Of a stretch of 64,000 nt of DNA, positions 1,524-63,914 are shown piece by piece. The DNA comes from Candidatus Berkelbacteria bacterium. Its GTDB lineage: Bacteria; Patescibacteriota; UBA1384; 2-12-FULL-50-11. The notes below the pieces were generated by a model that had not been told where the DNA came from, made no database searches, and worked only from the letters and a program-made list of their open reading frames with translations. The stretch is from NCBI GenBank assembly GCA_016432625.1, contig CP066697.1, forward strand, positions 279,363-343,362. The letters are read 5' to 3'. Each line of letters opens with the position of its first letter. Within the stretch, counting starts at the first letter, position 1. The translations under genes and the position numbers were made by a program.

Positions 1524-2522
1524 ATGCTTAAAATTGCAATCAACGGTTTCGGCAGAATCGGGCGCACAGCAGCGCGAATCTTGCTTACTCACCATGCGGA
1601 ACAGGCCGAACTCGTCGCGGTTAATGATTTAACAGACCCCAAAACGCTGGCCCACCTTTTTACGTACGACTCAAATTACCGGACCTTCTCGCCCGCAGCC
1701 AAAAGCGATAGCGATCTAATTATTGTTGGTGAAAAACAGATAAAAGTTTTTGCCGAGCAAGACCCAGCGAAATTACCTTGGGACGAGTTAAATGTTGACG
1801 TGGTACTTGAATGCACTGGTCATTTCACGGACGGTAAAACCGCCGCAGCTCATCTTAAAGCCGGAGCTCGTCGGGTTGTGATTTCAGCACCTGCTGACAA
1901 CGCCCCGACGCATGTTCTTGGCGTTAATGACGAAACGGCTCACGAATCTGAAGTTATCAACAATGCCTCATGCACGACTAACTGTATTAGCCCGGTCGCC
2001 GCGGTGATGCATGCCAAGTTTGGTGTGGCAAAGGCAATGATGACAACAATTCACTCGTACACTCAGGATCAGAATTTGCAGGACGGACCACACAAGGATT
2101 TGCGTCGCGCTCGCGCCGCCGCTCAAAATATTGTCCCAACGACAACCGGCGCCGCTAAAGCAACAACGGAAGTTATTCCCGAGCTTAAAGGCTTATTTGA
2201 TGGTCTAGCCATCAGGGTTCCAACACCGGTCGGTTCGCTAGCCGATTTCACTTTCTTACTAAAAAGTAAGACGACTGTGGACGAAATTAAGCAGGTACTA
2301 ATCGATGCCGCAAAAAGCCCGAGGTATCGGGGGATTCTTGAGGTAACAGACGAGCCGCTTGTTTCATCAGATGTTATTGGTAACCCTGCCTCAGCTATTG
2401 TCGACTTGTCGCTTACCCAAGTGATCGATGGCGATATGGCAAAAGTAATTGCCTGGTACGACAACGAATACGGCTATTCTTGCCGGCTTGTCGAGATGGC
2501 TCTAAAAGTTGGGGCAAAGTAA
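1524..2522 (+). CDS. gap: glyceraldehyde-3-phosphate dehydrogenase
   Basis: INGFGRIGR Rossmann N-terminus and the ASCTTNC active-site motif. An AAGGAGG RBS precedes the ATG. Confidence 0.9.
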   Translation: MLKIAINGFGRIGRTAARILLTHHAEQAELVAVNDLTDPKTLAHLFTYDSNYRTFSPAAKSDSDLIIVGEKQIKVFAEQDPAKLPWDELNVDVVLECTGHFTDGKTAAAHLKAGARRVVISAPADNAPTHVLGVNDETAHESEVINNASCTTNCISPVAAVMHAKFGVAKAMMTTIHSYTQDQNLQDGPHKDLRRARAAAQNIVPTTTGAAKATTEVIPELKGLFDGLAIRVPTPVGSLADFTFLLKSKTTVDEIKQVLIDAAKSPRYRGILEVTDEPLVSSDVIGNPASAIVDLSLTQVIDGDMAKVIAWYDNEYGYSCRLVEMALKVGAK

Positions 2523-3208
2523 TGCGCAGCGGTACCTACGACGGGGCGACGATTTCAGCGTTGGGCCATGACGGCTTTATTGTCGAATATCCCGAGCAAA
2601 AGTTTACTTTTGCCTTTGATCCGTATGACGTCAAAGACGAGTTCGTTACTCCAGTGGACTTTGTTTTTGTGTCTCACCCACATTTCGACCACTGTGACGT
2701 TAACTCAATCAGAAAGCTTCTGAAGCCGAGCGGTAAAATATTTGCCCCGCCGGCCGCCGCAAAGGAGCTGGAGTCATTCGGCGCCCAATTAGAAATTTTT
2801 GATGGCAAAGATAAGCGCGCCACGAAATTTTTTAAATATTGGACGGTTCCTGCTTACAATATCGATAAATTTCGAACACCAAACGAAGTATTTCACCCTA
2901 AGGAAGCAGGTTTTGTTGGCTGGATCATTGAAGTTGGTGCGACGCGCTACTACCACGCTGGTGACAGTGACTTCACCCCTGAAATGGCGGAGTTAAAGAA
3001 GATTGACGTTGCCTTTCTACCGATCTCTGGGACGTTTGTAATGACACTCGAGGAGGCGATCAAGGCGGTTGAAGTTTTGGAGCCAGATGTGGTTGTGCCG
3101 ATGCATTTCGGTAAGTTACTTGGCTCGGTATCTGACGCCCATCGTTTTGCTAATTTACTGAAGGAAAAGTCCAAGATTCTTGTTCTATCAACCGAGAGCT
3201 ATCCGTGA
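2522..3208 (+). CDS. metallo-beta-lactamase-fold hydrolase
   Basis: It has an HPHFDHCD (HxHxDH) metal-binding motif. The ATG overlaps the gap stop (TAATG). An alternative upstream start at 2480 would overlap gap. Confidence 0.6.
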   Translation: MRSGTYDGATISALGHDGFIVEYPEQKFTFAFDPYDVKDEFVTPVDFVFVSHPHFDHCDVNSIRKLLKPSGKIFAPPAAAKELESFGAQLEIFDGKDKRATKFFKYWTVPAYNIDKFRTPNEVFHPKEAGFVGWIIEVGATRYYHAGDSDFTPEMAELKKIDVAFLPISGTFVMTLEEAIKAVEVLEPDVVVPMHFGKLLGSVSDAHRFANLLKEKSKILVLSTESYP

Positions 3209-10189: not shown

Positions 10190-12091
10190 TCAGTCGTCGA
10201 GGTTGAGAAGCTTCTTCAGGCCCTCAAGGTCGTTTGCAGCGAGCAACTGCTTGGCTGCAGCGGCTGCCTCTGGATTGGCTCGGAAAGCCTCACCGACGAC
10301 CTTAGTTTGCATGAGCTTCTGCTTTTTGCGCACGAGCGCCGCCATTGCCTCGTCTTGCGCCGCCATTTCCGCTTCGAGCTCGGCCAACGAATCGTCGATG
10401 GTCTTCTCGATCCTAGGAGTGGACGGCTGAACGTTCGGTATGGCCCCGACCGGTTTTTTAGCCGGAGTTTGCTTTCTCACTGCGGAGGCAGCCGGCGCCG
10501 TAGTGGTGCCATTTGTCGCTTTGAGATCTGCAATCACCTTGCTAGCCGAATCGACCTTCTGAAGGTCAAGTTCGCGCTGTCGTGTCGTGCTTGCGTCAAA
10601 CTCGGCTTCGCGTTCCTTCCAGATCGGTTGCCAAGCTTCAACGAGAGAGACTAGCTTCTCGTTGATCGTGTAGCCTACACCGTACGGGTTGCGTCGCTCC
10701 CCGGTGATGTAGCGAGCGTTTGATAACGCTCGGTGGGAGGCCTCAATGACTTTCTCGTTTGTCGTCCAGACATCCAGGGCTTTGCGAAGCGCCGCCCAGT
10801 ATGAGTCCGCTATGAGGAAGTTTGTGCCCTCAGAAGCCGCGATCAGCGTCTCGCCGACCGTGGCAATGCCCTCGTCTGAAGCGACGCGCTCCAGCAAGTT
10901 GTTCAGTCGAGTCTCCGTTAGCTGGTCGCCTTGGGGGCGACTTTTCTTGGCGAGTTCAATTGCTTCTCGCTGCTTGACCACGACGTAGCCTTTGTGTTCG
11001 TACGGCTCTCCGCACTGCTCGAGCACCTTGCGACGCACGAGCTGGCTTAGGCCGCCACCGATCCGACGATCGGCGATTTCATTTGAGTCGATGCCGATTC
11101 TTTGTAAGTACCGACAGAAGACGGCAAGCGTAGCCACGTAGGATAGAGATCCTGACAATGGGTCGGCCTCTGCCATCAGCTCCGCTTCCAGAGCGGCTAG
11201 CTTCTGTTCGTTCTGAAAGAGGTCGCCAAAGGTGCCCTTCTGTTCAGTCTGAGGAGTCGGCGACGCGGCAGGATCCGCTGCGTCATGAGTGTCGAGTTTT
11301 CCCGGTGCGGCCGGTTTCGTGTCTCCCTCGTTGGTAACGGGGGGAGTATCAGCGGGCGGCTGTGGAACGACGACCGTAGTGACGGCCTGCTGGGCAGGCG
11401 GTTCAGGCGTCGTTTGCTGGGTAAAACCAGCTGCAGCTGTTACAACAGCGGCAATAGAGGCGTCTTTCGTCAGCGTGAAGTGGCTAATCGTCTTGCCGTT
11501 CTGAGCGAACGGGAAGAGGTGACTGCCACGCACGAGGCGAAGAAACGCGTCTTGAACGAGCTCTTCACTCGGGTTCTTAACGCCACTGCTGTCTTCGATA
11601 ACGCAGACAACTGCAGTTGCAACCTCTGTGATCGGGATCAAGCCGCGATCCGTCTTCGGGTCGACAACAAGTTGAACGACCAGATTCAGGTGGCTTTCGT
11701 TCCAGAACACGTCGGGGTTGATGCTTGCCTGTCGCTCGCTTATGTTGACGACGACGCTCGACGGCGCCGACTTCTCCTCAGCAGCGCTGACCTTAGCGTG
11801 AACCACGCTGGGGTCGAGTGGGCTGTGAACCTGGGCCCGGAAATGATAACAAGTGTCGTTATCACCCGGTTGGCAAACGCCTTCGATCAAGCGGCCATTA
11901 CGGCGGCTGATCTTGACGCCCTTCCGGTGATGCGTACCCTTGATCTTCTCTCCGATCCAGAGCTCGATTTTGCCTGCGCATTGCAGGCGGTCGCTGAAAC
12001 GTCGTTCGATTGACTCGAAGAAGTCCTTGGGGGCTTCTTTCCGCCGATCGTGACGCTCGAATGTTAACGAACGAGTTTTCGTTTCTATCAC
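10190..12091 (-). CDS. hypothetical protein, 633 aa, with Pro/Thr/Ala-rich central linker and C-terminal coiled-coil; GC-rich
   Basis: Long ORF, about 60% GC versus a backbone of about 47%. No domain recognised. Confidence 0.55.
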   Translation of the reverse strand: MIETKTRSLTFERHDRRKEAPKDFFESIERRFSDRLQCAGKIELWIGEKIKGTHHRKGVKISRRNGRLIEGVCQPGDNDTCYHFRAQVHSPLDPSVVHAKVSAAEEKSAPSSVVVNISERQASINPDVFWNESHLNLVVQLVVDPKTDRGLIPITEVATAVVCVIEDSSGVKNPSEELVQDAFLRLVRGSHLFPFAQNGKTISHFTLTKDASIAAVVTAAAGFTQQTTPEPPAQQAVTTVVVPQPPADTPPVTNEGDTKPAAPGKLDTHDAADPAASPTPQTEQKGTFGDLFQNEQKLAALEAELMAEADPLSGSLSYVATLAVFCRYLQRIGIDSNEIADRRIGGGLSQLVRRKVLEQCGEPYEHKGYVVVKQREAIELAKKSRPQGDQLTETRLNNLLERVASDEGIATVGETLIAASEGTNFLIADSYWAALRKALDVWTTNEKVIEASHRALSNARYITGERRNPYGVGYTINEKLVSLVEAWQPIWKEREAEFDASTTRQRELDLQKVDSASKVIADLKATNGTTTAPAASAVRKQTPAKKPVGAIPNVQPSTPRIEKTIDDSLAELEAEMAAQDEAMAALVRKKQKLMQTKVVGEAFRANPEAAAAAKQLLAANDLEGLKKLLNLDD

Positions 12092-12240
12092 GTCATACCT
12101 CCATTGGTGCTGCGACGATGGACCTGGAAACGATTTCCAGATCCGGTTACTGACGGGCAGTAACCGTAGTGACGAAATTCTACTCTACACTGAGCAAAAA
12201 TCAAGGCTTTTGCAAGTCATTTTGAGCTGCTGATATGGAA

Positions 12241-12264
12241 ACGCCTCCCGGTTAGGGGAGGCGT
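12241..12264 (-). terminator. hairpin downstream of the 363-aa gene
   Basis: acgcctccc-ggtta-gggaggcgt stem-loop, 20 nt after the stop on the minus strand. The following T-run is weak. Confidence 0.35.
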
Positions 12265-12284
12265 CTTCGGGTTGCGTCCAAGTG

Positions 12285-13376
12285 TTACTTCCACAAGGAC
12301 GCGATTTGGGTCTCGTCGAGATGCTGCAAGAGTGAGTTGCTTGACGGGTCAACGTCAGCAGCTTTCGCTGCCTCGATTTTGCCGGCAAGCTCCGCTTGCT
12401 GCTGCTGGCAGGTCTGCACTTCCTGCTCGGATCGCACCACGTTCCTGCGTGCCTGTTCGAGTCGTGACTGCGCTCGGGTGAGCTCAGTTTCGAGTTGTTC
12501 CTCCTCCTTCTTCAAGGACAAGAGCGTTTTTCGCGTTTCGATCAAGGTGCGCAGTGCCTCGACTTTCTCGCGAGCCCCAGGCGCCATGCCCTGAACGCTA
12601 CCCGACAGAAGCTGCCGAATGGCGCTGAGGGCGAGCTTCTTACCACGCCGGTCCAGGAGGTAGTTGTTTTGCTCGTCTTGCATGACGACGTTCGTCTCCA
12701 AGAGAACCCTCTTGGCAACGTAACGGCAACCTTGGCGCATCTTGCCCTCGCCGGTAGCTAGCTCGTGAGTCAACTCGATCACAACATCGAACTCTTCTTC
12801 GGTGCACGAAGCGTTGTCGAGGCACCAGATGTAGTTCAACACTACGTCGTTCTGCAGGAAGTCGCGACGCCAGGCCTGCTCGCAATCGGCGCAGATCTGG
12901 GCCAAGGGTATTCCTGAGTCGGCCTCGGCATCGTTCCATCGCTTCGGCTCCCGGATCCCGAGCCGCTGACAGACCACGTCTACACCGATATTGAGTGGGT
13001 TAATCAGCGTGTAGAAAGCTTGGAGCGAGTCGCCGTGCTGTACCAAGACCTTGATAGAGTCTCGGTTCGGCACGCATTCGATCGGTTCGAAGGCAAAGGT
13101 GACTTCTTTTCTGCCTGCCGCCGCCGAAATCACCTCGATCTCGACGTCGCCAGTGATGCCACGCTTCTGAAGCTCGCTGATGACGTAGTCGATAAACTCT
13201 TGAGGCCTATCGACATTCTTGAGAATTGAAGCGGCTTTGACGGACTTATCGGCCGCCGCACGCGCTTCTTGCTCGGTGAGGCCTAGGGCAGTGCCCACGA
13301 CCGCACTGAGGTGCCGCAGATTTTTAATTTTCAATTCCGATAATCCTCCACGAAATGCCCAGGCATTGTAAAGCAA
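12285..13376 (-). CDS. hypothetical protein, 363 aa, C-terminal coiled-coil; GC-rich
   Basis: Long ORF co-directional with and upstream of the 633-aa gene. No domain recognised. Confidence 0.55.
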   Translation of the reverse strand: MLYNAWAFRGGLSELKIKNLRHLSAVVGTALGLTEQEARAAADKSVKAASILKNVDRPQEFIDYVISELQKRGITGDVEIEVISAAAGRKEVTFAFEPIECVPNRDSIKVLVQHGDSLQAFYTLINPLNIGVDVVCQRLGIREPKRWNDAEADSGIPLAQICADCEQAWRRDFLQNDVVLNYIWCLDNASCTEEEFDVVIELTHELATGEGKMRQGCRYVAKRVLLETNVVMQDEQNNYLLDRRGKKLALSAIRQLLSGSVQGMAPGAREKVEALRTLIETRKTLLSLKKEEEQLETELTRAQSRLEQARRNVVRSEQEVQTCQQQQAELAGKIEAAKAADVDPSSNSLLQHLDETQIASLWK

Positions 13377-15042: not shown

Positions 15043-15186
15043 GATCGGGGAAATGGTATCACAGATAAGACTTCAAGTCAGGGGACGAATATGGTTCAAA
15101 AAATTCGCGCCAGGCCGTTGGCGCTTCCTTGCGCTACCCCAATGGCGATCATCGCTACTATATATACCTGTAATAGTATATTCTTC

Positions 15187-15267
15187 GTAGGGGCAAGGGG
15201 CTTCATTGCGAAGTCAGCCCCTTACCCCTACAACCCCATCCCCAACACGCTCCCTACGGGGTTAAGG
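15187..15267 (+). repeat. R repeat copy A: GC-rich hairpin (gtaggggcaaggggc / ttcattgcgaagtca loop / gccccttacccctac) plus downstream box ccccaacacgctccc
   Basis: A near-identical copy in inverted orientation lies at 26504-26581. Related copies lie at 59343-59412, 60070-60220 and 60995-61042. Confidence 0.8.
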
Positions 15268-15331
15268 TGAAAACTTTCGGTTCGTTCCGGAAGGATCGCG
15301 GTAACAGCCCCTCAGTTTCGACTATTAACTA

Positions 15332-15385
15332 ATCGAAAAACAAGCAAATCTAACCCTCAAGCAGGTTATTTACTTGTTTTTCTCC
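15332..15385 (+). repeat. S stem-loop copy A (atcgaaaa-[stem]-aatctaaccctcaagcaggttatt-[stem']-ttttctcc)
   Basis: Direct copy at 26450-26503 with a different but again self-complementary stem. Third copy (reverse complement) at 59425-59475. Possible structured RNA or att-like site. Confidence 0.6.
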
Positions 15386-15543
15386 AGACGCCTGTTCGAA
15401 TGTGCCGGGGGTTGGTCGTTAGGATAGGGGGCGGGCTTCTAAACTCTGAGCCCCCTGTCCTAACATGTAGCCTCGCTTCGTGCGACGAAAAACAATAAAC
15501 AATTAGCATATGCTTCGTAACATAAAAAACATCCTAAACTCAT

Positions 15544-15571
15544 TGACAAATAGATGAGTTTAGAGTATCAT
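15544..15571 (+). promoter_or_regulatory. sigma70-like promoter reading into the GC-rich island
   Basis: TTGACA, a 16-nt spacer, then TATCAT, in an AT-rich patch at the island's left edge. Confidence 0.5.
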
Positions 15572-15584
15572 CTTGCACAACAAG

Positions 15585-15785
15585 TTAGGAAAGAATATTT
15601 TCTACTTGAGCACGTCCAACTAAATAAAGATCGAATGCGTCGGTAGCGCCTTCATCAGTGATTATTGATGACTTTGCGCGCGAATCGGCAAGGTCTTTTT
15701 TGTTGCCCGTGAGGCGGTAGGCCCGTCCTCGGCTTGAGCGATTATGCCTAACGAGGTAGTTGCAACAATAGCCACTCTTTAACAA
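15585..15785 (-). CDS. possible small basic protein (66 aa, TTG start) antisense to the promoter-proximal leader
   Basis: GAGGA lies 5 nt upstream of the TTG. There is no other support. Confidence 0.2.
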   Translation of the reverse strand: MLKSGYCCNYLVRHNRSSRGRAYRLTGNKKDLADSRAKSSIITDEGATDAFDLYLVGRAQVENILS

Positions 15786-16160
15786 CTTGTTTCCTCATTG
15801 CCCACGAGCCTAAGTTCGTGAGTAGCGAGGAGCGGTTGAAGCAATTCGACCGCTGGTAATCCAGTCATGATAAAAAACCACAAAGATCCGCGGGCCGAGA
15901 AGGCTCGCTCTCGTCGAAGTCCGGACTATTCACGCGACCCTGCTGGCTGTTTTGCCAGACATGCCCACAAGGCAGATCGCCGACTTCGCCATATGGGTGT
16001 GAAGGGAAAGCGTCCGAAAATCTACTGGGTGACGACGCTCGGTTGGCGAGCAAGCATTTAGCAGTACAGCGATACGGGCGAGACCAGATCTTCGAATTTG
16101 GTCTCGCCCTCTCATGACACGTTCGATGACTCGAACGTGGCTAGGAGGATAGTAAAAACC

Positions 16161-24957: not shown

Positions 24958-25203
24958 ATGTTTATCGGTGATCGAATCGACAAGATCTGCCAACTTGTCG
25001 CCCTTCTAGGGGTTCTTTTCTGCGTCGGCTCTATGTGGGTCTTCGCTCGTCTGGATAAACCGGTTACTTGGGCTTATTACTCAATGTTAGGCCTTGTTGT
25101 AACATTGGTTGCCCTCACGGTTATTCTCTTTCGGGGAAAACGCTATCAGAAGATGTGGCAGAAAGCCCGATGCATGTTCCTGAAGGAGTGGCCCGATGAC
25201 TAA
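24958..25203 (+). CDS. island small 2-TM membrane protein (81 aa)
   Basis: GGGGAGGAGAG RBS. Confidence 0.5.
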   Translation: MFIGDRIDKICQLVALLGVLFCVGSMWVFARLDKPVTWAYYSMLGLVVTLVALTVILFRGKRYQKMWQKARCMFLKEWPDD

Positions 25204-25292
25204 CATGTCCGTTATCCGGCGCAGCGACTTGCACCCGCTGCGCCCGCTTCCTGACCGCCCGTGAAGAACACGGACGGCGAGGTAGGTGATTA

Positions 25293-25454
25293 ATGTCGAC
25301 AAGTGGAAAATGCCTCATGCTGGGATCGATTGTCCTTGGTTCGATTGCCGGCACCCAGCTACACAGTTTCTGGGTAGGTTTGGGCGTCTGGTTCGGGCTG
25401 GCGATATACGGCTCGGCATTCTTGGTCGCTCAGAACAAAGGGGAAACAAGTTGA
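25293..25454 (+). CDS. island small hydrophobic protein (53 aa). Not in the ORF track; preferred over the listed 25286..25504 frame
   Basis: GAGGTAGGTGA lies 5 nt upstream of the ATG. Product MSTSGKCLMLGSIVLGSIAGTQLHSFWVGLGVWFGLAIYGSAFLVAQNKGETS is membrane-like, as are its neighbours. Confidence 0.35.
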   Translation: MSTSGKCLMLGSIVLGSIAGTQLHSFWVGLGVWFGLAIYGSAFLVAQNKGETS

Positions 25455-25548
25455 GAATCCGCGAAGCGCCGGGCTTAAAAACCCCGGCGCTTTTTGCGTT
25501 TTAAAAAGGTGTAAAATACTTTCATCTGAAACGAGCAGGAGGTGAAAG

Positions 25549-25833
25549 ATGAGCTCGGGCAGTGTTCCTCAAAGCGGCCAGTCCAAAAGTAACCGGCCGA
25601 ATGACTATCAAAGTCTTGGTGGGGCAGGGAACTTCTTCCTTGAGCCCGACGAGGTTTATGGAACTGCACCGGACTATGCCAGTTATCTCAAGGTCATTGG
25701 TCTGATCTTGGGCGAATCGGGCATCGTTTACGGTCTCTACCGGTTCGGCAGTCCGTTGGCGTTAGTGGTTCTCGTCGCCATAATCTTTTTGGCGATCTTA
25801 GCCTACGGCGTTAATAGGGTGCTGTTTGAATAG
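25549..25833 (+). CDS. island C-terminally anchored membrane protein (94 aa)
   Basis: GCAGGAGGTGA RBS. Confidence 0.5.
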   Translation: MSSGSVPQSGQSKSNRPNDYQSLGGAGNFFLEPDEVYGTAPDYASYLKVIGLILGESGIVYGLYRFGSPLALVVLVAIIFLAILAYGVNRVLFE

Positions 25834-25888
25834 CGGCTGGACGATTTCCAAAGATGTCGGGTCAAACTCGGCAAAGGAGGTGGGTCTA

Positions 25889-26140
25889 ATGGTGATCCAA
25901 GAGAAACCTCGAAACGACGAGTGGCGTGAGCGTTACGCTCACCCGCATCAGACGCGCTTGAGCCGTGTGGCTGAGGAAATACGGTTAATACCCGTGGTTC
26001 TCGGTCTGGCGATTGGTGGACTGGTGCTTGTTGGTCTGTCGGTTGGCTTCTCCGCGCCAATATATGCCGGAATTATTCTGTTCTCATTCGGAATACTGGC
26101 GGAATGGCTGCTGGGCAGACACTATGACTACACGTCTTGA
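25889..26140 (+). CDS. island membrane protein (83 aa)
   Basis: AAAGGAGGTGGG RBS before the ATG at 25889. Confidence 0.5.
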   Translation: MVIQEKPRNDEWRERYAHPHQTRLSRVAEEIRLIPVVLGLAIGGLVLVGLSVGFSAPIYAGIILFSFGILAEWLLGRHYDYTS

Positions 26141-26449: not shown

Positions 26450-26503
26450 ATCGAAAATGGTGCGAATCTAACCCAAAGCAGGTTATTCGCCCATTTTCAT
26501 CCG
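26450..26503 (+). repeat. S stem-loop copy B (direct repeat of 15332-15385 with compensatory stem)
   Basis: atcgaaaa-tggtgcg-aatctaacccaaagcaggttatt-cgcccat-tttcatcc. Confidence 0.6.
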
Positions 26504-26581
26504 TAACCCCGTAGGGAGCGTGTCGGGGATGGGGTTGTAGGGGTAAGGGGGTGACTTCGCAATGAACCCCTTTACCCCTAC
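26504..26581 (-). repeat. R repeat copy B (inverted copy of 15187-15267), abutting the uvrA stop codon
   Basis: Its reverse complement reads gtaggggtaaaggggttcattgcgaagtcaccccccttacccctacaaccccatccccgacacgctccctacgggg. Confidence 0.8.
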
Positions 26582-29484
26582 TCACTTTTTTCTACAGACG
26601 GAGAATGTTTTGCTTTCTTGCCAAAAATAACGGGCTCTAAAACTTTCCCGGTTAACGAGGCTTTGGTTAACGCCACCTCTTCTGGCGTTCCTTTGGCAAC
26701 AATCGTGCCGCCTGCTTCGCCACCTCCGGGTCCTAAATCAATCAGCCAGTCAGCACTTTTGATAACGTCTAGGTTGTGTTCGATAACAACGATTGTGTTA
26801 CCACGGTCAACCAGCTTCTGAAGAACGAGCAGTAGGCGTTCGACGTCGGAAAAATGAAGGCCGGTCGTCGGTTCATCTAAAACATAGAGAGTTTTGCCGG
26901 TATCGCGCCGTGAGAGCTCGGAAGCGAGCTTGATTCGTTGCGCTTCACCGCCGGACAACGTTGTTGCCGGTTGTCCGAGGCGAATATAGCCCAAGCCAAC
27001 TTGCTGCAAAGTGCGCAGTTTGTCAGCGAGAACGCCGATATTTTCAAAAAATTCCAACGCTTCATCGACGGTCATATTGAGAACCTGGGAGATATTCTTC
27101 CCTTTCCAGGTAACTTCAAGCGTCTCGCGGCTATAGCGTGTGCCCTTACAAACGTCGCAGGTGATATAAACATCGGGCAGGAAGTTCATTTCGATCTTAA
27201 TTACCCCGTCGCCCTGACAGTTTTCGCAACGTCCACCGACAACGTTAAAAGAAAACCGACCTGGTTTATAACCGCGACTTCGGGCGGAAGGCGTAGCGGC
27301 GAAAAGCTGGCGAATCGGGTCAAAAGCCTTGGTGTAGGTGGCCGGGTTGCTGCGCGGAGTACGGCCGATAGGGGACTGATCGATTTCGATTATCTTGTCG
27401 ATATGTTCGGTCCCGGTGATCGACTCGTGACTGCCCGGCACGTCGCTTTTTAAGCCGAGTTTCATACTAATTCCTTTACTAAGAATCTCAGTGACTAGGG
27501 TTGATTTACCCGATCCAGAAACTCCCGTCACGGCGACAAAACGCTTTAGCGGAATGTTGGCGGTGATGTTCTTGAGATTATTCTCTTTAGCTCCGTGAAT
27601 GGTGATGTTTGTGTGCCCTTTCTCGATCGTGCGTCGTTCTGGCAGGGCAATTTTCTTATCGCCGCTTAGGTACGGCGCGGTGATTGATTTGGGGTTCTTT
27701 AAGACTTCGTCTAAAGTTCCGGCGGCAACGATTGTCCCGCCGTGTTCACCAGCTCCCGGGCCGATATCGACGACGTAGTCCGCTTCGCGAATAGTTGCCT
27801 CGTCGTGCTCAACAACAATTACCGAGTTGCCTAAATCTCGCAGACGTTTCAGGGTTTCAATGAGTCGGTCGTTGTCGGTTGGGTGAAGGCCGATTGTCGG
27901 CTCGTCCAAAACATACAGGATACCGACAAGCGCCGAACCAATCTGTGAGGCAAGGCGGATGCGTTGGCTTTCACCGCCGGCCAGAGTTGTAGCGGTGCGA
28001 TCAAGCGTCAAATAGTTGAGCCCGACTTTTCCCAGGAATTCGAGTCGGCTAGCAATTTCGAGCAATACCTTGCCGGCGATATTGGCTTCGCGGGCGTTTA
28101 ATTTTAATTCATCAAAGAATGCTCGTGCCTTGTCGATTGTGAGTTGCGACACTTCAGCGATATTTTTGCCGCCAACTTTTACGATTAGTGCGTCTTCCTT
28201 CAGACGAGCGCCTTTGCAGGTTTTGCACTCGCTGGAGAGCATATAGCGCTCGATTTGCTCGCGCACCATGTCTGACTCGGTTTCATGGTAGCGAGATTCA
28301 AGGTGCGGAATGAGTCCACGAAAACCAACCATAAAATGATGGGCAACACCGGCGGAGTAGTACTTTAGTTTTAGCTTTAACGGCGCTCCGACGCCGTAAA
28401 GAAGCTTATTTAAGTCTTGTTTCTCAAGTTTTTTGATCGGCACGTCAACGCTCATCCCAAAATGCTCGGCAGCGTTTTTAAGCAAAATTCCGTAATAGTT
28501 TGTTGGCGAGTACGTCCAGGGCATAATACCGCCCTCGGCAATTGATTTATTGTCGTCGGGAATGATTAAAACCTCGGAAACCTCTTTTTTGAAGCCTAAG
28601 CCGTGACAGTCTTCGCAAGCGCCATAAGGGCTATTGAATGAAAACGACCGGGGCGAAATTTCACCCAAAGAAAAACCGTCGTATGGGCAGGCTAAATCCT
28701 CGCTCAGCATCAATTCGTCGTCTTTGCCTTCCTGAGCAATAATAACCAAGCCTTTAGAAAGCTTAATTGCTGTTTCCATCGCTTCGTTCAAGCGGGTGCG
28801 ACTTGATTGGCCCATAATTAGTCGGTCAACTACCACTTCAATGTTGTGGGCTTTATAGCGGTCCAGCTGGATTGAATCAGTCAGGGCGTACATCTCGTCG
28901 TTGACTCGAACGCGGGCAAAACCACCCTTATATAGGTCGTAGAGTAATTGGTGATATTCGCCTTTGCGGCCACGGACGACCGGCGCAAGGACGATTACGC
29001 GGGTGTCTTGCGGCAACGACTCGACCAGGTCAACCATCTGGTCGGTCGTTTGGCGCGAGATTGGCCGGCCGCATTTAGGACAAAACGGGGTCCCAACCCT
29101 GGCAAAAAGTAGTCTCAGGTAGTCGTAAATTTCTGTCACCGTGCCAACCGTCGAGCGTGGATTATGGGAGACGGTTTTTTGGTCGATTGAAATCGCTGGC
29201 GAGAGCCCTTCGATATAATCTACGTCGGGTTTCTCCATTTGACCCAAAAATTGCCGGGCGTAGCTTGAGAGCGATTCCATGTAACGGCGCTGTCCTTCGG
29301 CGTAAATCGTGTCGAAGGCCAGGCTGGACTTGCCAGAACCTGACAGGCCAGTGAAAACAATTAGTTTTTCGCGCGGCAACTCAAGGTCAATGTTTTTGAG
29401 ATTATGTTCGCGGGCGCCTTTAATAACTATAGTTCCTGCGGAACTTTCGAGGGCTTTGCTTGAGATCTTTTCTTCCGTTGCCAT
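26578..29484 (-). CDS. uvrA: excinuclease ABC subunit A
   Basis: 968 aa. Duplicated ABC ATPase ([20 protein letters not shown]), zinc-finger Cys clusters and LSGGE signature motifs. Confidence 0.95.
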
Positions 29485-57203: not shown

Positions 57204-59291
57204 ATGGCACGTGAATATCCGTTAGAGAGTGTCCGTAACTTTGGCATAATTGCTCACATCGACGCTGGTAAAACCACCGTTTCGGAACGCATCCTGTTCT
57301 TCACCGGTAAAACTTACAAGATTGGTGAAGTACACGAGGGTGCGGCCGTCATGGACTGGATGGAGCAGGAACAAGAGCGTGGTATTACTATCACCGCCGC
57401 CGCTACCACCACTTTTTGGAAAGATCACACGTTCAACATCATCGACACCCCGGGACACATCGACTTTACCGTTGAAGTTCAGCGCTCTCTGCGCGTGCTT
57501 GACGGGGCGGTGACCGTTTTTGATGGTGTGGCCGGTGTTGAGGCGCAAAGTGAAACTGTTTGGCGACAAGCCGACAAGTATAAAGTACCGCGAATCTGTT
57601 TCGTCAATAAACTCGATCGTATCGGGGCGGATTTCAAGCACGTTATTAAAACCATTCACGATCGTCTCGGCGCCAAGACAGCGATTCTCCAACTGCCAAT
57701 CGGCACCGAGGATCAGTTAAAGGGTGTTGTCGATTTACTCGAGAACAAAGCCCTGGTTTGGCCAAAAGAAGAAGCCACCGAACCCACGATCGAAGACGTT
57801 CCGGCCGATATGAAAGCCGAAGTCGAAGAGTATCGCAGTAAACTAATCGAACAAATCGCCGAAACTGACGAAGCCCTGCTGGAAAAGTTTTTTGCCGGTG
57901 AAGAGCTCGCTATTGATGAGTTGAAAAAAGCGCTTCGTAAAGCGGTCATCAATGTCGAACTCTTTCCCGTCATGGCTGGTTCTGCCCTCAAAAACAAAGG
58001 CGTTCAGCCGTTGCTAGACGCAGTTGTTGATTATCTTCCGTCGCCGCTTGATGTTCCGCCGGTTGAGGGAATTAACCCGAAAAACGAAGAAGAAAAAATT
58101 GTCCGCGAAACTTCTGACGACGTACCATTTACAGCCCTTGCCTTTAAAGTCGCAACCGATCCTTTTGTTGGCTCGTTAACGTTCTTCCGCGTCTACGCCG
58201 GAAAACTTGCTGCTGGCTCGTATGTTTTAAACCCTGGAAAAGGCGAGAAAGAACGTATCGGTCGCATCGTCCGCTTGCACGCCAATAGCCGCGAGGACGT
58301 CAAAGAAGTCTACGCTGGTGAAATTGCCGCTGCTGTGGGATTAAAAGCCACTACTACTGGCGACACTCTCTGCGCCGAAAATGCGCCGATCGTGCTGGAA
58401 CAGATCAGTTTCCCAGAGCCGGTCATCAAAATGTCAATCGAGCCGAAAACCAAAGCCGACCAAGAAAAAATGGGCGCTGCCCTGCAACGTCTCGCCGCCG
58501 AAGACCCAACTCTACGTTTATCTAAAGACGAAACTGGCTCACAAACGCTGATCGAAGGCATGGGCGAGCTTCACCTCGACATTATCGTCGACCGCATGAA
58601 GCGCGAGTTCAACGTTGAAGCCATTAAAGGCGCGCCGCAGGTTGCTTACAAAGAAACGATCAAAAGCACCGTCAAACAAGAAGGCAAATACATCAAACAA
58701 ACCGGTGGCCGCGGCCAGTACGGTCACGTTTGGCTGCAAATCGAGCCGCAAGAATCAGGAACCGGCTTTGAATTCGTCAACAAGATTGTCGGCGGCACCA
58801 TTCCTCGCGAATTCATTCCTTCAGTTGAAAAGGGTATCAAAGACGCCCTGACCAAGGGTGTAGTTGCCGGCTATCCAATGGTTGATATTAAAGCCACGCT
58901 TTACGATGGTTCGTACCACGACGTCGACTCTAGTGACGTTGCCTTCCAGATTGCCGGCGCCATGGCCTTCAAAGATGGTTGTAAAAAAGCTAACCCGATT
59001 CTCCTTGAACCGATAATGAAGGTTGAAGTCGTCACGCCGGAAGAGTTCTTCGGTAACGCGATGGGCGACTTAAACAGTCGTCGTGGCCGAGTAATGGGTA
59101 CCGAAGATCGCGGCAACTCCAAAGTTATCGACTCGCACGTCCCGCTTGCTGAAATGTTTGGCTACATCACTGATCTTCGCGGTATGAGCCAAGGACGAGC
59201 TTCGTTCACCATGGAATTTGACCATTACGAAGAGGCGCCGAGCAATATCACCGCTGGCATCGTTGGGAAAAGTGCCAAGGCAGAGGCGTAA
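57204..59291 (+). CDS. fusA: elongation factor G
   Basis: [17 protein letters not shown] and NKLD motifs. ATG at 57204. Confidence 0.95.
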
Positions 59292-59312
59292 AATATTTTG
59301 AATCAAAAGCAG

Positions 59313-59337
59313 AGAAGCGCCGATGCGGTGCTTTTTT
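59313..59337 (+). terminator. intrinsic terminator after fusA
   Basis: gcgccgatgcggtgc hairpin followed by tttttt. Confidence 0.6.
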
Positions 59338-59342
59338 GTTTC

Positions 59343-59412
59343 GCAGGAGGTAGGGGAATTCATTGCGACGTCATCCCCCTACCTCCTGCACCTCCACCCC
59401 CGACACGCTCGC
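59343..59412 (+). repeat. R repeat copy C (hairpin 59343-59389 plus ccccgacacgctcgct box)
   Basis: Loop attcattgcgacgtca and box are shared with copies A and B. Confidence 0.75.
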
Positions 59413-59424
59413 TCATGGCTGAAG

Positions 59425-59475
59425 GCAAAAAGCGACTTCATAACCTGCCTAGGGGTTAGATTCAGCCGCTTTTTA
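59425..59475 (-). repeat. S stem-loop copy C (reverse orientation)
   Basis: Its reverse complement reads aaaaagcggctg-aatctaacccctaggcaggttat-gaagtcgcttttt. Confidence 0.5.
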
Positions 59476-59515
59476 ACTATTTAATAAAATACATACAAAA
59501 TACGGGGCGAAGGCG

Positions 59516-59544
59516 TTGACTTTGAGGTGGGTTTAGGGTATTAT
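59516..59544 (+). promoter_or_regulatory. strong sigma70-like promoter (TTGACT, 17-nt spacer, TATTAT) with no ORF downstream
   Basis: The consensus-like boxes are followed about 110 nt later by a hairpin/T-run terminator (59656-59690). Confidence 0.5.
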
Positions 59545-59551
59545 TCGCCAG

Positions 59552-59690
59552 CGTTCGACGGCTTCCTTTGGAAGCAAACTTCCGGCTGTGGCCAGGTTGT
59601 GCAAACAACCGACCTAAACCACGTAAGCCCCAATTCAAGAATCGTCGAACGAAACCGGCTCCCGCCACCATACGGGAGCCGTTTCATATT
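59552..59690 (+). ncRNA. candidate small RNA (promoter-to-terminator unit of about 130 nt) convergent with the 67-aa hydrophobic-protein gene
   Basis: Defined only by the promoter at 59516-59544 and the terminator cggctcccgccaccatacgggagccg + tttcatatt. No credible ORF. Confidence 0.3.
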
Positions 59691-59734
59691 ATGTATGAGT
59701 TGGGCCCGGGAAGTTCATCCCGGGCCCTTTCTGG

Positions 59735-59938
59735 CTACCGCTGTGGAGGCAAAGGGCCTCCGCCGAGTGTCTCGCCCATGCCTAACGCAAAGGCGATAAA
59801 CATGGGAGAAAGTGCGATGCCGATGCCGGCATACATCACCTGTTCCTGGTGAAACAAGGCAGCGATGCCGGTAATGATCAGTCCGAAGACTGTTCCAGAT
59901 GCGTATGGGTGCCTTCGCACAAAAGAAACGAACCTCAT
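59735..59938 (-). CDS. small hydrophobic protein (67 aa, 2 TM), candidate type I toxin-like
   Basis: GGAGGT RBS 6 nt from the ATG. Extended -10 (TGgTATACT) upstream. Two tandem hairpins downstream on the minus strand. Confidence 0.5.
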   Translation of the reverse strand: MRFVSFVRRHPYASGTVFGLIITGIAALFHQEQVMYAGIGIALSPMFIAFALGMGETLGGGPLPPQR

Positions 59939-60069
59939 CCGGTTACCTCCTACCGATGTTTCGCAGAGTATACCAGTTAACCCCCACCTAATCCATATAA
60001 AACCCGTCGAAAAGTAAATCGAAAATTACCAAGCCATGGAACAGCGCGGTAATTTTCTCCTCAACCGCG

Positions 60070-60220
60070 TAGCGAGCGTGTCGGGGTGAGACCGCCAGTG
60101 AGAAGCCAACTGCTTGGCTTTGAACCGGTCGAACGGGTTGAGGCCTATTCGTAGAATGCCGAAACCCCGCTTCATTTGTTGGTAGGGGCTGACTTCGCAA
60201 TGAATTCCTCTACCTCCTGC
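60070..60220 (-). repeat. R repeat copy D (box tagcgagcgtgtcgggg, about 95-nt spacer, hairpin with loop ttcgcaatgaatt)
   Basis: Reverse-complement orientation relative to copy C. Forms the right inverted repeat of the insertion. Confidence 0.7.
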
Positions 60221-60371
60221 AAAACAAAAAGCGGCCTTTGGCCGCTCGCTGCTTTTGATTCAAAATGTTTTAAGCTCCGGCTAGCGAGGGCGAATTGCTC
60301 ACGCTAGTCTGGATTTTTTAACAAAAGATATATATAATTCCGACTAATCTTCGGATTACAGGAGGAACCCC

Positions 60372-60851
60372 TTGGAAGAGAACGTTAAAGATGATCGGAG
60401 AATCTGGGCGCTGATTCGAGAAATCGATGAGGTTAAGAAGCGCTCCTTGCTTCCACCCGGACAGCAGGAAATGAGTAAGGCCAGACGATGCAAATTAGCT
60501 CGTCGGCTTATGTACCTTCTTGATGATGCGAAAGGCGTGATGACGGAAAGCGAATTATTCAGCCACCTAGGCACTACGGCTGAAGAGTATCACACGCAGT
60601 GTTCGCCAAAGTACGGTGATGCGACGATCGTCGAATTCGTCAGGTCTCGAGACGCCAAACTCGATAACCTACGCGAAAGGTGTTTAGACACACTTGATCC
60701 GAACAGGGTCAAGATCGGCACATCAAGGTCGAGTGGACGAGCGATTAGTTTCCTGAGCAATGCCGAGCAGGGCGCAGGAGCTGAACTCTCAATTGACAGG
60801 TGCATCTCGCTTCTCGAGGAGTTACGCAAAATCCAAGACGAGGCGAAATGA
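60372..60851 (+). CDS. hypothetical protein (159 aa, TTG start)
   Basis: CAGGAGGA RBS 5 nt before the TTG. GC-rich. No domain recognised. Confidence 0.45.
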   Translation: MEENVKDDRRIWALIREIDEVKKRSLLPPGQQEMSKARRCKLARRLMYLLDDAKGVMTESELFSHLGTTAEEYHTQCSPKYGDATIVEFVRSRDAKLDNLRERCLDTLDPNRVKIGTSRSSGRAISFLSNAEQGAGAELSIDRCISLLEELRKIQDEAK

Positions 60852-60994
60852 AGACGATACGAAGGCCGAGGCGCGCAAGCGCTGAGGCCTTTTTCTTTAC
60901 TTATCACCCAAAAACCACGAGCCATGCTCCGTGAAACAGGATCAGCGAGCGGTTTTCACCTCGCCCCTGCGGGTGGCGTGCTTGGGTGGGGAGT

Positions 60995-61042
60995 GCAGAG
61001 GGGTAGGGCAGCGCTTCGCAAGTAGCACCCCTACCCCTCTGC
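60995..61042. repeat. R-like hairpin copy E (diverged), followed by a T-run
   Basis: gcagaggggtaggg / loop cagcgcttcgcaagtagca / cccctacccctctgc. The loop shares cttcgcaa with other R loops. An upstream agcgagcg box lies at about 60953. Confidence 0.55.
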
Positions 61043-61102
61043 TTGAGTTTTCGCTGCTACAATTAGGAAAGACGTCAGCACCCTGTCTTAACGAAAGGAG
61101 CC

Positions 61103-61132
61103 TTGACGCTCCTTCTGATAACCAGGTACAAT
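61103..61132 (+). promoter_or_regulatory. sigma70-like promoter for tuf
   Basis: TTGACG, an 18-nt spacer, then TACAAT, about 65 nt before the tuf ATG. Confidence 0.5.
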
Positions 61133-61198
61133 AGCGAAGCTAGACACAATATGCAAACTAGTTAAATAATTATTAGGTTAAAGGAGAAGTTTAAATAA

Positions 61199-62380
<1,182 letters not shown>

Positions 62381-62817: not shown

Positions 62818-63513
62818 ATGGATCCCAATAGTGATGAGTATAAGAATTTTCTAGCCTTCAAGGAAGATAGGCTCGGGACAGCAAAACTGCGAGATGAGGT
62901 TGTTGATAAGTTTGTTGGACATATCACAGATAATCTTAAGCAGCGACGTGAGCTACTGAAGCATATAACAATTATCTCCGCAGGTATTGTTGCGGTTTTG
63001 CCTGTGATACAAAACGGAAGCGATAATAGTAACTTGTTTTTCTGGGGAATATTCTTACTGCTAGTCACGGTGGTGCTAACGGTTAGTTATTTGCGAGAGA
63101 AGATGGACCTTGAAGGACAATCTCTGCAAGACAATTCGGAGAAGTATCTGACTATACTCAAGACAAAGCTTGCCCTACTTGATCGGTACATCGGTGAGCG
63201 GAAATTCTCTAATAACAATGTTTCTGAGTATCTGGATGAGTTGGAGAATGAGCCAACTATTAGAGAGCTTGGACGAGAGGTAGGTAAACCCGCAGAAAAA
63301 GAACGTTTAGAATATTTCTCTGAGTTCGTTGTCTTTTTATTCGTAAGCGCACTTTTCCTTTTAGCTTCAGCACTTGTTCCGTTGTCCCTAAATCCCTACG
63401 AGTTTTTTTCAACAATTGTCGTGATATTCATCGTTTCCTTCACTGGGTTTGCTTCATTACTCTCTCGAGTAATCACCGACATCATCGACTACTTTTTGCA
63501 TAGGATCAGGTAA
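62818..63513 (+). CDS. hypothetical membrane protein (231 aa)
   Basis: Several hydrophobic helices. Lower GC than the backbone average. Confidence 0.5.
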   Translation: MDPNSDEYKNFLAFKEDRLGTAKLRDEVVDKFVGHITDNLKQRRELLKHITIISAGIVAVLPVIQNGSDNSNLFFWGIFLLLVTVVLTVSYLREKMDLEGQSLQDNSEKYLTILKTKLALLDRYIGERKFSNNNVSEYLDELENEPTIRELGREVGKPAEKERLEYFSEFVVFLFVSALFLLASALVPLSLNPYEFFSTIVVIFIVSFTGFASLLSRVITDIIDYFLHRIR

Positions 63514-63524
63514 CCCTCTTGCGA

Positions 63525-63914
63525 CTAGGCCCGTATAATCTTTTCCATTGGCCTACCCTTGGCCAGGTCGTCGATGAGTTTGTCTAGAATTCGAACTTCG
63601 CGGACTATTGGGTCGGTGATTTCTTCGATCCGTACGCCACAGATTGTGCCAGTAACTTTAGTGCGGTTGGGATTGGGTTTGGGAGCTTGGGAGAAAAACG
63701 CTTCGAAATCAGTTTCGCTATTGAGTACGGCTTCTAATTCTTTTTGAGAATAACCCGTCAGCCAGCGGATAATTTCATCAACTTCAGCTTTGGTGCGGCC
63801 CTTTTTCTCGGCCTTGGCAACATAAAACGGGTACACCCCCGCCACCTTCATTTTATATATTCGTTGTTTCGACTTCTCGGTATCCATAATTAGTTCCCTT
63901 ATTCTACCAAACAC
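63525..63914 (-). CDS. DUF2200-like protein (129 aa)
   Basis: [27 protein letters not shown] resembles the conserved N-terminus of the DUF2200 family. The start could be the internal Met. Confidence 0.45.

Follow-up and report, generated by a model that had tools for sequence, protein, structure and literature searches.

Introduction

The repetitive extragenic palindromes (REP) of proteobacteria, together with their composite forms BIME and REPIN, are mobilized by RAYT transposases, which are IS200-like Y1/HUH enzymes. BOX elements of Streptococcus pneumoniae are assembled from boxA, boxB and boxC parts, and the Correia elements (NEMIS) of Neisseria are 100 to 155 bp long, carry 26-bp terminal inverted repeats (TIRs) and duplicate a TA target. 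Candidate phyla radiation (CPR) genomes, small and streamlined, are commonly said to contain few repeats and little mobile DNA, and the str operon is among the most conserved of bacterial gene orders. Here we describe a 64,000-nt stretch of the 769-kb genome of a Candidatus Berkelbacteria bacterium (contig CP066697.1, positions 279,363 to 343,362; hereafter, the window) in which the str genes fusA and tuf are separated by 1907 nt. Our analyses, which covered the window and ∼110 kb of related Berkelbacteria contigs, show that this spacer is a polymorphic, lineage-specific expansion (insertion) of an already insulated spacer and that the added cassettes are framed by a new, previously undescribed family of structured repeats, here called R/S modules. 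The site is a real, dynamic insertion site and not a classical transposon. The finding is real and moderately interesting, and the repeat family is a more notable result than the insertion itself.

As defined from the window and its relatives, an R/S module is ∼135 nt long and has three parts: a terminator-like hairpin (S) whose apex (TAACC...GGTTA) is conserved, whose paired base varies and which A and T runs flank on both sides; a conserved box, TTTTCACCTTAACCGCGTAGCGAGCGTGTCGGGG; and a 14- to 16-bp hairpin (R) with the conserved loop TGACTTCGCAATGAA. In some copies a segment designated X replaces or displaces S. Like REP and REPIN sequences, R/S modules are multicopy, GC-rich, imperfect extragenic palindromes, often lying right past stop codons. 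Many stems open with GTAG or include it; in the modules this is GTAGGGG at the base in some copies and GGTAGGGG, internal, in others. R/S modules also share with REP and REPIN sequences the formation of inverted pairs that act as one unit and retention at orthologous sites, without target duplication. They differ from REP and REPIN sequences in the longer R hairpin (45 to 50 nt) with its large conserved loop, in the three-part module that includes a bidirectional terminator, in their low density (six copies in 64 kb), in the absence of a RAYT gene among the window open reading frames (ORFs) scanned and in their host, a CPR bacterium with a genome of ∼0.77 Mb. The resemblance to BOX elements lies in a modular build with optional or swapped middle parts (here S-type and X-type modules and inserts), in strong folding and in an intergenic position with no coding capacity and no known transposase; the sequences, however, are unrelated, and R/S modules have terminator hairpins and outward-facing pairs able to enclose cargo.

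Correia elements and other bacterial miniature inverted-repeat transposable elements (MITEs) are likewise short intergenic units bounded by inverted repeats, may carry promoters or terminators and are present or absent between close relatives. In contrast, the unit described here lacks a target duplication, its outer "TIR" is a host terminator, and it is 984 bp long with genes of its own. Its interior recalls the type I toxin–antitoxin loci txpA/RatA and bsrG/SR4 of Bacillus subtilis, in that a small hydrophobic ORF faces a convergent small RNA, both under promoters of their own, with a terminator region in common and within a repeat-flanked intergenic island. Here, however, no overlap or complementarity is apparent, there is no homology, and the ORF is larger, with two hydrophobic segments. 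As to integron attC sites, inspection by eye found no RYYYAAC/GTTRRRY cores in S or R, the modules lie in mixed orientations, and no integrase domain was detected in the ORFs scanned.

The fusA–tuf Spacer Is Polymorphic among Relatives

The window carries the gene order rpoB-rpoC-rpsL-rpsG-fusA-[1.9 kb]-tuf-rpsJ. A preliminary description, made from the sequence alone, had proposed that fusA and tuf are split by an insertion and had located the end of fusA, the start of tuf and a separate TTGACG/TACAAT promoter for tuf; each of these assignments was borne out (Table 1). The UvrC and EF-G proteins of the window and a 159-aa ORF in the spacer are identical to NCBI entries QQG50199.1, QQG50154.1 and QQG50153.1, respectively, and the window EF-G is 91.5 to 93% identical to 695-aa Berkelbacteria EF-G proteins. 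Two independent Logan assemblies match the window base for base over 58584–61005 and 59714–60620. This agreement, together with the 17% of positions at which the two arms of the inverted repeat in the spacer differ, excludes an assembly artefact.

We located relatives through EF-G and retrieved the corresponding fusA–tuf locus from each. In the relative designated L081 (EF-G ∼93% identical to that of the window), the spacer is 103 nt and the tuf promoter begins only 14 nt past the fusA stop codon. In L082 (∼92% to the window) it is 156 nt, in the P0006 contig (83% to the window) 113 nt and in the P0004 contig (88% to the window) 438 nt. The 951-nt spacer of L083 (EF-G identity 86%) contains a terminator, a 149-aa gene on the opposite strand and a small promoter–terminator unit. 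This 149-aa gene was considered as a counterpart of the 159-aa ORF and rejected, as the two are unrelated. In L094 (91.5% to the window) the contig ends within the spacer, after a terminator homologous to 59292–59342 and an X-box-R module on the plus strand. The EF-G proteins of L081, L082, L094 and the window are mutually 91.5 to 95% identical. Specifically, those of L081, with an empty site, and L094, with a terminator and one R module, are 95% identical. Because the tuf promoter is conserved in L081 and L082, where it lies close behind fusA, and in L083, upstream of tuf, the gene is transcribed from its own promoter in this clade, whatever lies upstream.

In the L082 spacer (L082 positions 2922–3000), 15 nt past the real stop, 44 nt of the fusA 3′ end, stop codon included, recur as a diverged but significant direct repeat (alignment score 46, vs. 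12.5 ± 2 in shuffles). This duplicate could have been left by integration followed by excision in the past, or the junction could have undergone tandem duplication.

The spacer on the other side of fusA also varies. Between rpsG and fusA lie ∼13 to 22 nt in the window and L081 and ∼220 to 250 nt in L082 (617–835), L083 (9749–10001) and L094 (379–597), and in the P0004 contig this spacer holds a 59-aa ORF.

The Inverted Ends of the 984-bp Unit and the fusA Terminator

The fusA-proximal part of the insertion is a 984-bp unit (59289–60272) with inverted ends of ∼100 nt. Its arms, 59289–59378 and 60185–60272, are 83% identical over 90 nt (blastn E = 4e-15), and a further perfect inverted block of 16 nt is formed by 59398–59413 and 60071–60086. 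The preliminary description had placed the unit at 59292–60272, with a shared terminal sequence, a terminator hairpin whose stem differs between the ends but still pairs, and an R hairpin in each end. The ∼1-kb unit with its inverted ends stands, although it starts at 59289, in the T of the fusA stop codon. The shared 18-mer ATTTTGAATCAAAAGCAG occurs exactly twice in 64 kb, once per arm, and both terminator stems fold. The R hairpin is intact in the left arm, but that of the right arm is broken by a 97-nt insert.

The outermost ∼50 nt of the two arms, T1a on the left and T1b on the right, are each a copy of the bidirectional terminator of fusA itself. A T1-type terminator lies directly past the fusA stop codon in L094 (homologous) and in L083 (similar). 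In T1a, the L094 T1 and the L083 T1 alike, the fold pairs the A-tract with the T-run on either side of a GC hairpin, the form of an intrinsic bidirectional terminator. The alignment of the window with L094 is continuous from the fusA coding sequence through T1. This continuity implies that T1 is host sequence and that T1b, the hairpin of which resembles the T1 hairpin of L094, is its inverted duplicate. On the strength of these alignments, a native origin of the outer ∼50 nt of the arms is shown.

The unit was first described as MITE-like. Such a classical nonautonomous TIR element (a MITE or composite transposon) would have been cut and pasted into the spacer by a DDE-type transposase whose gene lies elsewhere and which recognizes the ∼100-nt ends, and it would fit the real inverted ends, the identical terminal 18-mers, the short L081 and L082 spacers that resemble empty sites and the lack of a transposase within the unit, which the preliminary description had noted and which holds. 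The family of modules and the polymorphism of the site are real as well. However, the left terminus and the terminator that follows fusA in relatives are orthologous, the right arm is broken up internally, and the 984-bp unit, which contains a promoter, a candidate structured RNA and a 67-aa ORF, has transcription units of its own and is neither small nor noncoding, which is atypical of a MITE. A target-site duplication was looked for at the borders and none is present: the flanks read ...GAGGCG and AGCTCC... (GCG against AGC), the repeat runs into the fusA stop codon, and at the right border of the unit the window shows no second copy of the 3′ coding end of fusA. Nor does the proposed terminus recur in the sequence examined. 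No other T1-type terminus was found in the window or the ∼110 kb of related contigs, blastn against four related contigs returned no further copy, and phage and plasmid collections gave no match; what is dispersed is the R part of the ends, of which the window has six copies. We therefore judge a TIR element improbable, and the MITE label is not earned.

A Dispersed Family of Structured R/S Modules

Using a covariance model of box and R, with filters off, we found six copies in the window, all of them intergenic and half of them in the fusA–tuf spacer (modules A to E; Table 1). Further copies were found in relatives: one in L087 (the same organism as L092 and L093), two in L091, one in L094 and two in L095. 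The same search of L081, L082 and L083, at 8 to 22 kb each, found none. The modules proposed in the preliminary description are thus a real, dispersed family, and the diverged R hairpin that it placed beyond the 159-aa gene is present. Module C is an intact S-box-R copy, with a three-hairpin fold of −68.3 kcal/mol (z = −6.0). It is 84.7% identical over 137 nt to the module upstream of uvrC in L087, closer than to the uvrC copy of its own genome. Module D, of the X type, is damaged and gives two separate covariance matches (60053–60133 and 60181–60215). Module E is diverged and probably represents a decayed counterpart of the single module that follows fusA in L094; a possible T1 remnant beside it (60932–60952, a 21-nt, 81% inverted match to 60242–60262) is too weak to rely on alone.

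The 97-nt insert of module D (60087–60183) has small hairpins of its own and has replaced the linker and the basal half of the R 5′ arm; its sole match was a chance-level RAGATH-10 score.

The stems of R covary strongly: their sequences diverge widely, but pairing is kept. With nine R stems set in register by hand, pairing holds at 133 of 134 positions, and two or more pair types occur at 11 of 14. In the model-fitted alignment the covariation score is 0.298, compared with 0.208 ± 0.027 in shuffles; none of 500 shuffles reached it, and the unshifted register scored best. Of 11 R hairpins, 8 are more stable on the strand that reads from S to R, a weak hint only as to which strand is relevant. 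Copies A, B, L091a and L095a have GTAGGGG at the base of the stem; copies C, L087, L094, E and L091b have GGTAGGG within it, and A′ has GATAGGG. The S hairpins of C, L087 and A, with their flanking A and T runs, have the form of bidirectional intrinsic terminators. The R/box family matches no Rfam family, and the exact 19-base R-loop pattern has no match in viral contigs. A small ORF was tried as an explanation of the R module and rejected: overlapping ORFs in A, B and C encode similar peptides, but neither the frame nor the start codon is constant between copies, and coding would have to extend over both hairpin arms.

The modules upstream of uvrC offer a second view of the family. In the window and in L095, a ∼285-nt composite places two R hairpins, R and R′, outward from a central S, with R adjoining uvrC and R′ adjoining a divergent, conserved, RNA-like gene. 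L091 (6630–6925) has the whole R′-S-R composite in the opposite orientation to that of the window and of L095 (1188–1472), within unchanged flanks, and the breakpoints fall at the bases of the two hairpins, on their outer sides. At this site L087 carries only one module, of the S type. The composites of the window, L091 and L095 are thus inverted doublets of the REPIN kind, and the 984-bp unit shares their outward-facing design, with C on the left, D on the right, ∼560 nt of cargo between them and the T1 copies outside. Across genomes, the uvrC-upstream modules retain 86 to 93% nucleotide identity next to UvrC proteins that are only 69 to 73% identical, which points to constraint or continual homogenization. 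R/S modules behave more like selected structured repeats of the REP or BOX type than like a young MITE.

That composites of this kind occur in both orientations among genomes, and that the inverted repeats of the 984-bp unit flank promoters, would suit an invertible DNA switch in which an invertase flips the 0.8-kb interior at those repeats. The NCBI sequence and the two Logan assemblies, however, show a single orientation across both arms, the arms share no more than 83% identity and one of them is broken, no invertase was found nearby among the window ORFs scanned, and a flip would alter the expression of no flanking gene. We regard such a switch as very improbable.

Origin of the Expanded Spacer

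The reading that we favor, with about even confidence, is that R-bounded composites behave as REP/REPIN- or BOX-like nonautonomous units that nucleated cassette accretion at fusA–tuf. The spacer is a permissive site, already insulated from transcription, at which in this clade fusA is followed directly by the tuf promoter or by a bidirectional terminator and that promoter. Here the window strain has accreted ∼1.8 kb, consisting of copies of the clade-specific structured repeat and two strain-specific orphan cassettes. The apparent 100-nt terminal repeats are an inverted duplicate of the fusA terminator (T1a/T1b) joined to two outward R modules. R-bounded units may have been duplicated, inverted and recombined at their hairpins, through host recombination, template switching or an enzyme whose gene lies elsewhere, and DNA caught between two modules may have been carried along or retained. 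We propose that the insertion is tolerated because the built-in bidirectional terminators would shield fusA and tuf expression from the cassettes.

The main rival, which we consider possible but the less probable, is that only local rearrangement took place. R/S modules would then be fixed host elements (terminators, or RNA or protein-binding hairpins), a one-off template switching or inverted duplication would have involved the fusA terminator and a resident R, and the cassettes would have arrived by unrelated illegitimate recombination. The native T1 at the fusA 3′ end of L094 and L083 fits this account, as do the confinement of T1-type termini to this locus in the data examined, the missing target duplication, the decay of modules D and E and the retention of the uvrC composite in place in four genomes, and the 44-nt fusA-end duplicate of L082 implies a junction prone to rearrangement. 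Four observations are harder to reconcile with it: module C is closer to a uvrC module of another genome than to that of its own, an R module after fusA is present or absent between genomes with 95% identical EF-G, a whole composite is inverted with breakpoints at its hairpin bases, and three of six copies cluster around the inserted cassettes. Together, these suggest that the modules themselves move or recombine.

Several points nevertheless weigh against mobile R-bounded units. The uvrC composite has stayed at one orthologous site for a long time, which speaks for a role in the host and not for mobility. At modules B and C, the neighboring gene would transcribe the strand opposite to the S-to-R strand. 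No mobilizing enzyme was found: neither the 20 otherwise unannotated window ORFs scanned with Pfam nor the gene tables of the related contigs contain a transposase or recombinase domain. In the window and the ∼110 kb of relatives we saw no second R pair with cargo, no excision product and no empty site with exact junctions. Of five matches to the exact R-loop pattern in JGI metagenomes, only L087 is real. Copy number and distribution are poorly sampled by 64 kb of a 769-kb genome and the related contigs, and the origin of the inverted T1 copy is itself something that we infer.

A more specific possibility, which we think unlikely, is that R hairpins, with box and S, are the recognition sites of an unrecognized hairpin-directed recombination or single-strand transposition system in this CPR clade. 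This system would turn R-bounded composites around, carry copies of modules from one locus to another and introduce gene cassettes into operons that are otherwise invariant, and its enzyme would be encoded outside the window or by one of the large domain-less ORFs described below. If the modules are mobile, they offer a handle on the entry of new genes into reduced genomes; if they are host elements, they are a conserved structured motif that had gone undescribed. In both cases the family can now be searched for with a covariance model.

Cargo Genes and Signals

Between modules C and D, the unit carries a promoter, a candidate small RNA and a convergent 67-aa ORF, and the 159-aa gene follows to the right of the unit (Table 1). 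The insert does not differ from the host in GC content; the 159-aa gene, first described as GC-rich, is present as a plus-strand ORF with a GC content of 0.50 to 0.52, against ∼0.51 in its neighborhood. Searched against 1.84 billion representatives, its protein returned itself as the only real match, plus one low-complexity chance match. A database search with the 67-aa ORF returned only itself, and it has no paralogue in the window or the relatives. Neither ORF matched Pfam, PHROG, NCBIfam or PADLOC. The 159-aa protein is predicted, with low confidence, to be all-alpha (single-sequence AlphaFold2 pLDDT 55.7, too poor for a fold search).

Table 1. Window positions of the genes, signals and repeat modules
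Feature	Position	Strand	Basis and remarks
Composite upstream of uvrC	15183–15466		R(−)box(−)X(−) 15183–15330, S 15336–15381, box′(+)R′(+) 15377–15466; hairpins outward
Module A	15183–15273	−	Covariance model, 99.1 bits; upstream of uvrC
Module A′	15377–15466	+	Covariance model, 62.5 bits; upstream of uvrC
Module B (S-box-R)	26459–26585	+	Covariance match 26495–26585, 92 bits; uvrA 3′ end
fusA (EF-G, 695 aa)	57204–59291	+	ORF list; ATG at 57204 is the real start, ORF open from 57168; stop 59289–59291
T1a, fusA bidirectional intrinsic terminator (A-tract, hairpin, T-run)	59292–59342	+	Fold −20.7 kcal/mol, z = −3.9; outer left arm
Module C, intact S-box-R	59343–59474	−	R 59343–59389, box ∼59390–59431, S 59426–59474; covariance match 59340–59431, 93.4 bits
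Sigma-70-like promoter TTGACT-N17-TATTAT	59516–59544	+	Promoter scan, 10/12 matches; inside unit
Candidate structured small RNA	59551–59690	+	Ends at terminator-like hairpin 59656–59681 or reads on to 59703–59733
Hairpin GGGCCCGGG/CCCGGGCCC	59703–59733		Sequence and fold; between convergent RNA candidate and 67-aa ORF (shared terminator)
67-aa ORF, two hydrophobic segments	59735–59938	−	ORF list, hydropathy; GGAGGT Shine-Dalgarno 6 nt upstream
Module D, damaged X-box-R	60020–60220	+	X-like hairpin ∼60020–60052, box 60053–60086, 97-nt insert 60087–60183, truncated R 60182–60220
T1b, inverted copy of fusA terminator region	60221–60272	−	Inverted-repeat detection; hairpin GCGGCC-AAA-GGCCGC folds; outer right arm
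Terminator-like hairpin and T-run	60276–60319	+	Fold of 60225–60320; between unit and 159-aa gene
159-aa orphan ORF (HZB70_01015)	60372–60851	+	ORF list; AGGAGGA Shine-Dalgarno
159-aa gene terminator	60861–60898	+	Fold −22.7 kcal/mol, z = −4.1; then TTTTTCTTT
Module E, diverged box-R	60932–61045	+	Box 60953–60993, R hairpin 60995–61042; covariance match 60953–61045, 65 bits
tuf promoter TTGACG-N18-TACAAT	61103–61132	+	Promoter scan
tuf (EF-Tu, 393 aa)	61199–62380	+	ORF list; 393-aa EF-Tu genes at equivalent position in relatives

The RNA candidate is highly structured (195-nt fold of 59548–59742, −87.4 kcal/mol, z = −6.6) and belongs to no Rfam family. An Rfam search of the whole window at gathering thresholds gave no match, E-value searches of 59200–61250 and 15470–16120 gave chance-level matches only, and ARAGORN found no tRNA or tmRNA.

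Taken together, these parts bring to mind a type I toxin–antitoxin-like pair, a small membrane peptide and a convergent small RNA with a shared terminator, and addiction would explain the retention of the unit. The 67-aa ORF is small and hydrophobic, with a strong Shine-Dalgarno sequence and its own promoter (extended −10 TGgTATACT at ∼59968–59976); the RNA likewise has its own promoter, and a GC hairpin is shared between the two. Against this, the ORF has no homology to any toxin family, and at 67 aa with two hydrophobic segments it looks larger than familiar type I toxins. The RNA has its own, earlier terminator, so that overlap may be nil and an antisense relation is not apparent. The NCBI record also appears to lack an annotation of this ORF, the accessions of the 159-aa gene and fusA being consecutive. 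The small RNA shows no excess complementarity to the 5′ region of the ORF mRNA over shuffles (z = +1.2 and +0.5), and the toxin–antitoxin reading is therefore supported by architecture only. We think it improbable.

Sequences Adjoining Other Modules and the Region beyond rpsJ

The region divergent from uvrC that adjoins the R/S composite is conserved over ∼240 nt, has its own TTGAC...TA...T promoter and lies at 15544–15840 (+) in the window, 2189–2470 (+) in L087, 6250–6590 (−) in L091 and 800–1105 (−) in L095. In these four genomes it contains the long invariant blocks CTTGAGCAC, GCGTCGGTAGCGC, CCTAACGAGG and CACTCTTTAACAAC, with a mean column identity of 72%, and no Rfam family matches it. 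It may represent a small RNA or a leader not yet described. Next to uvrC, at 10190–13376 (−), are two large ORFs of 633 and 363 aa; they have no Pfam domain and only faint PADLOC scores, which makes them candidates for new functions, and they are the sole sizeable uncharacterized proteins close to a repeat copy.

At module B, the GTAG at the base of the R hairpin forms the uvrA stop codon (TAG, minus strand; 26578–26581), so that the module abuts or overlaps the coding end. Just upstream of this module, 24958–26140 holds four or five small ORFs (53 to 104 aa) with hydrophobic segments, which are dissimilar to the 67-aa ORF.

In the window rplC does not follow rpsJ. The place is taken (62818–63513 and 63525–63914) by a 231-aa membrane ORF of low GC content (0.40 to 0.42), with weak SLATT/DUF4231 matches, and a DUF2200 gene. 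Other cargo is found past rpsJ in L081, L082, L083 and the P0006 contig, namely a serine hydrolase, a type I restriction–modification system or a PIF1 helicase, and the P0006 contig has three additional genes ahead of rplC. Within the cluster of ribosomal genes, the region past rpsJ thus resembles a second hot spot of insertion.

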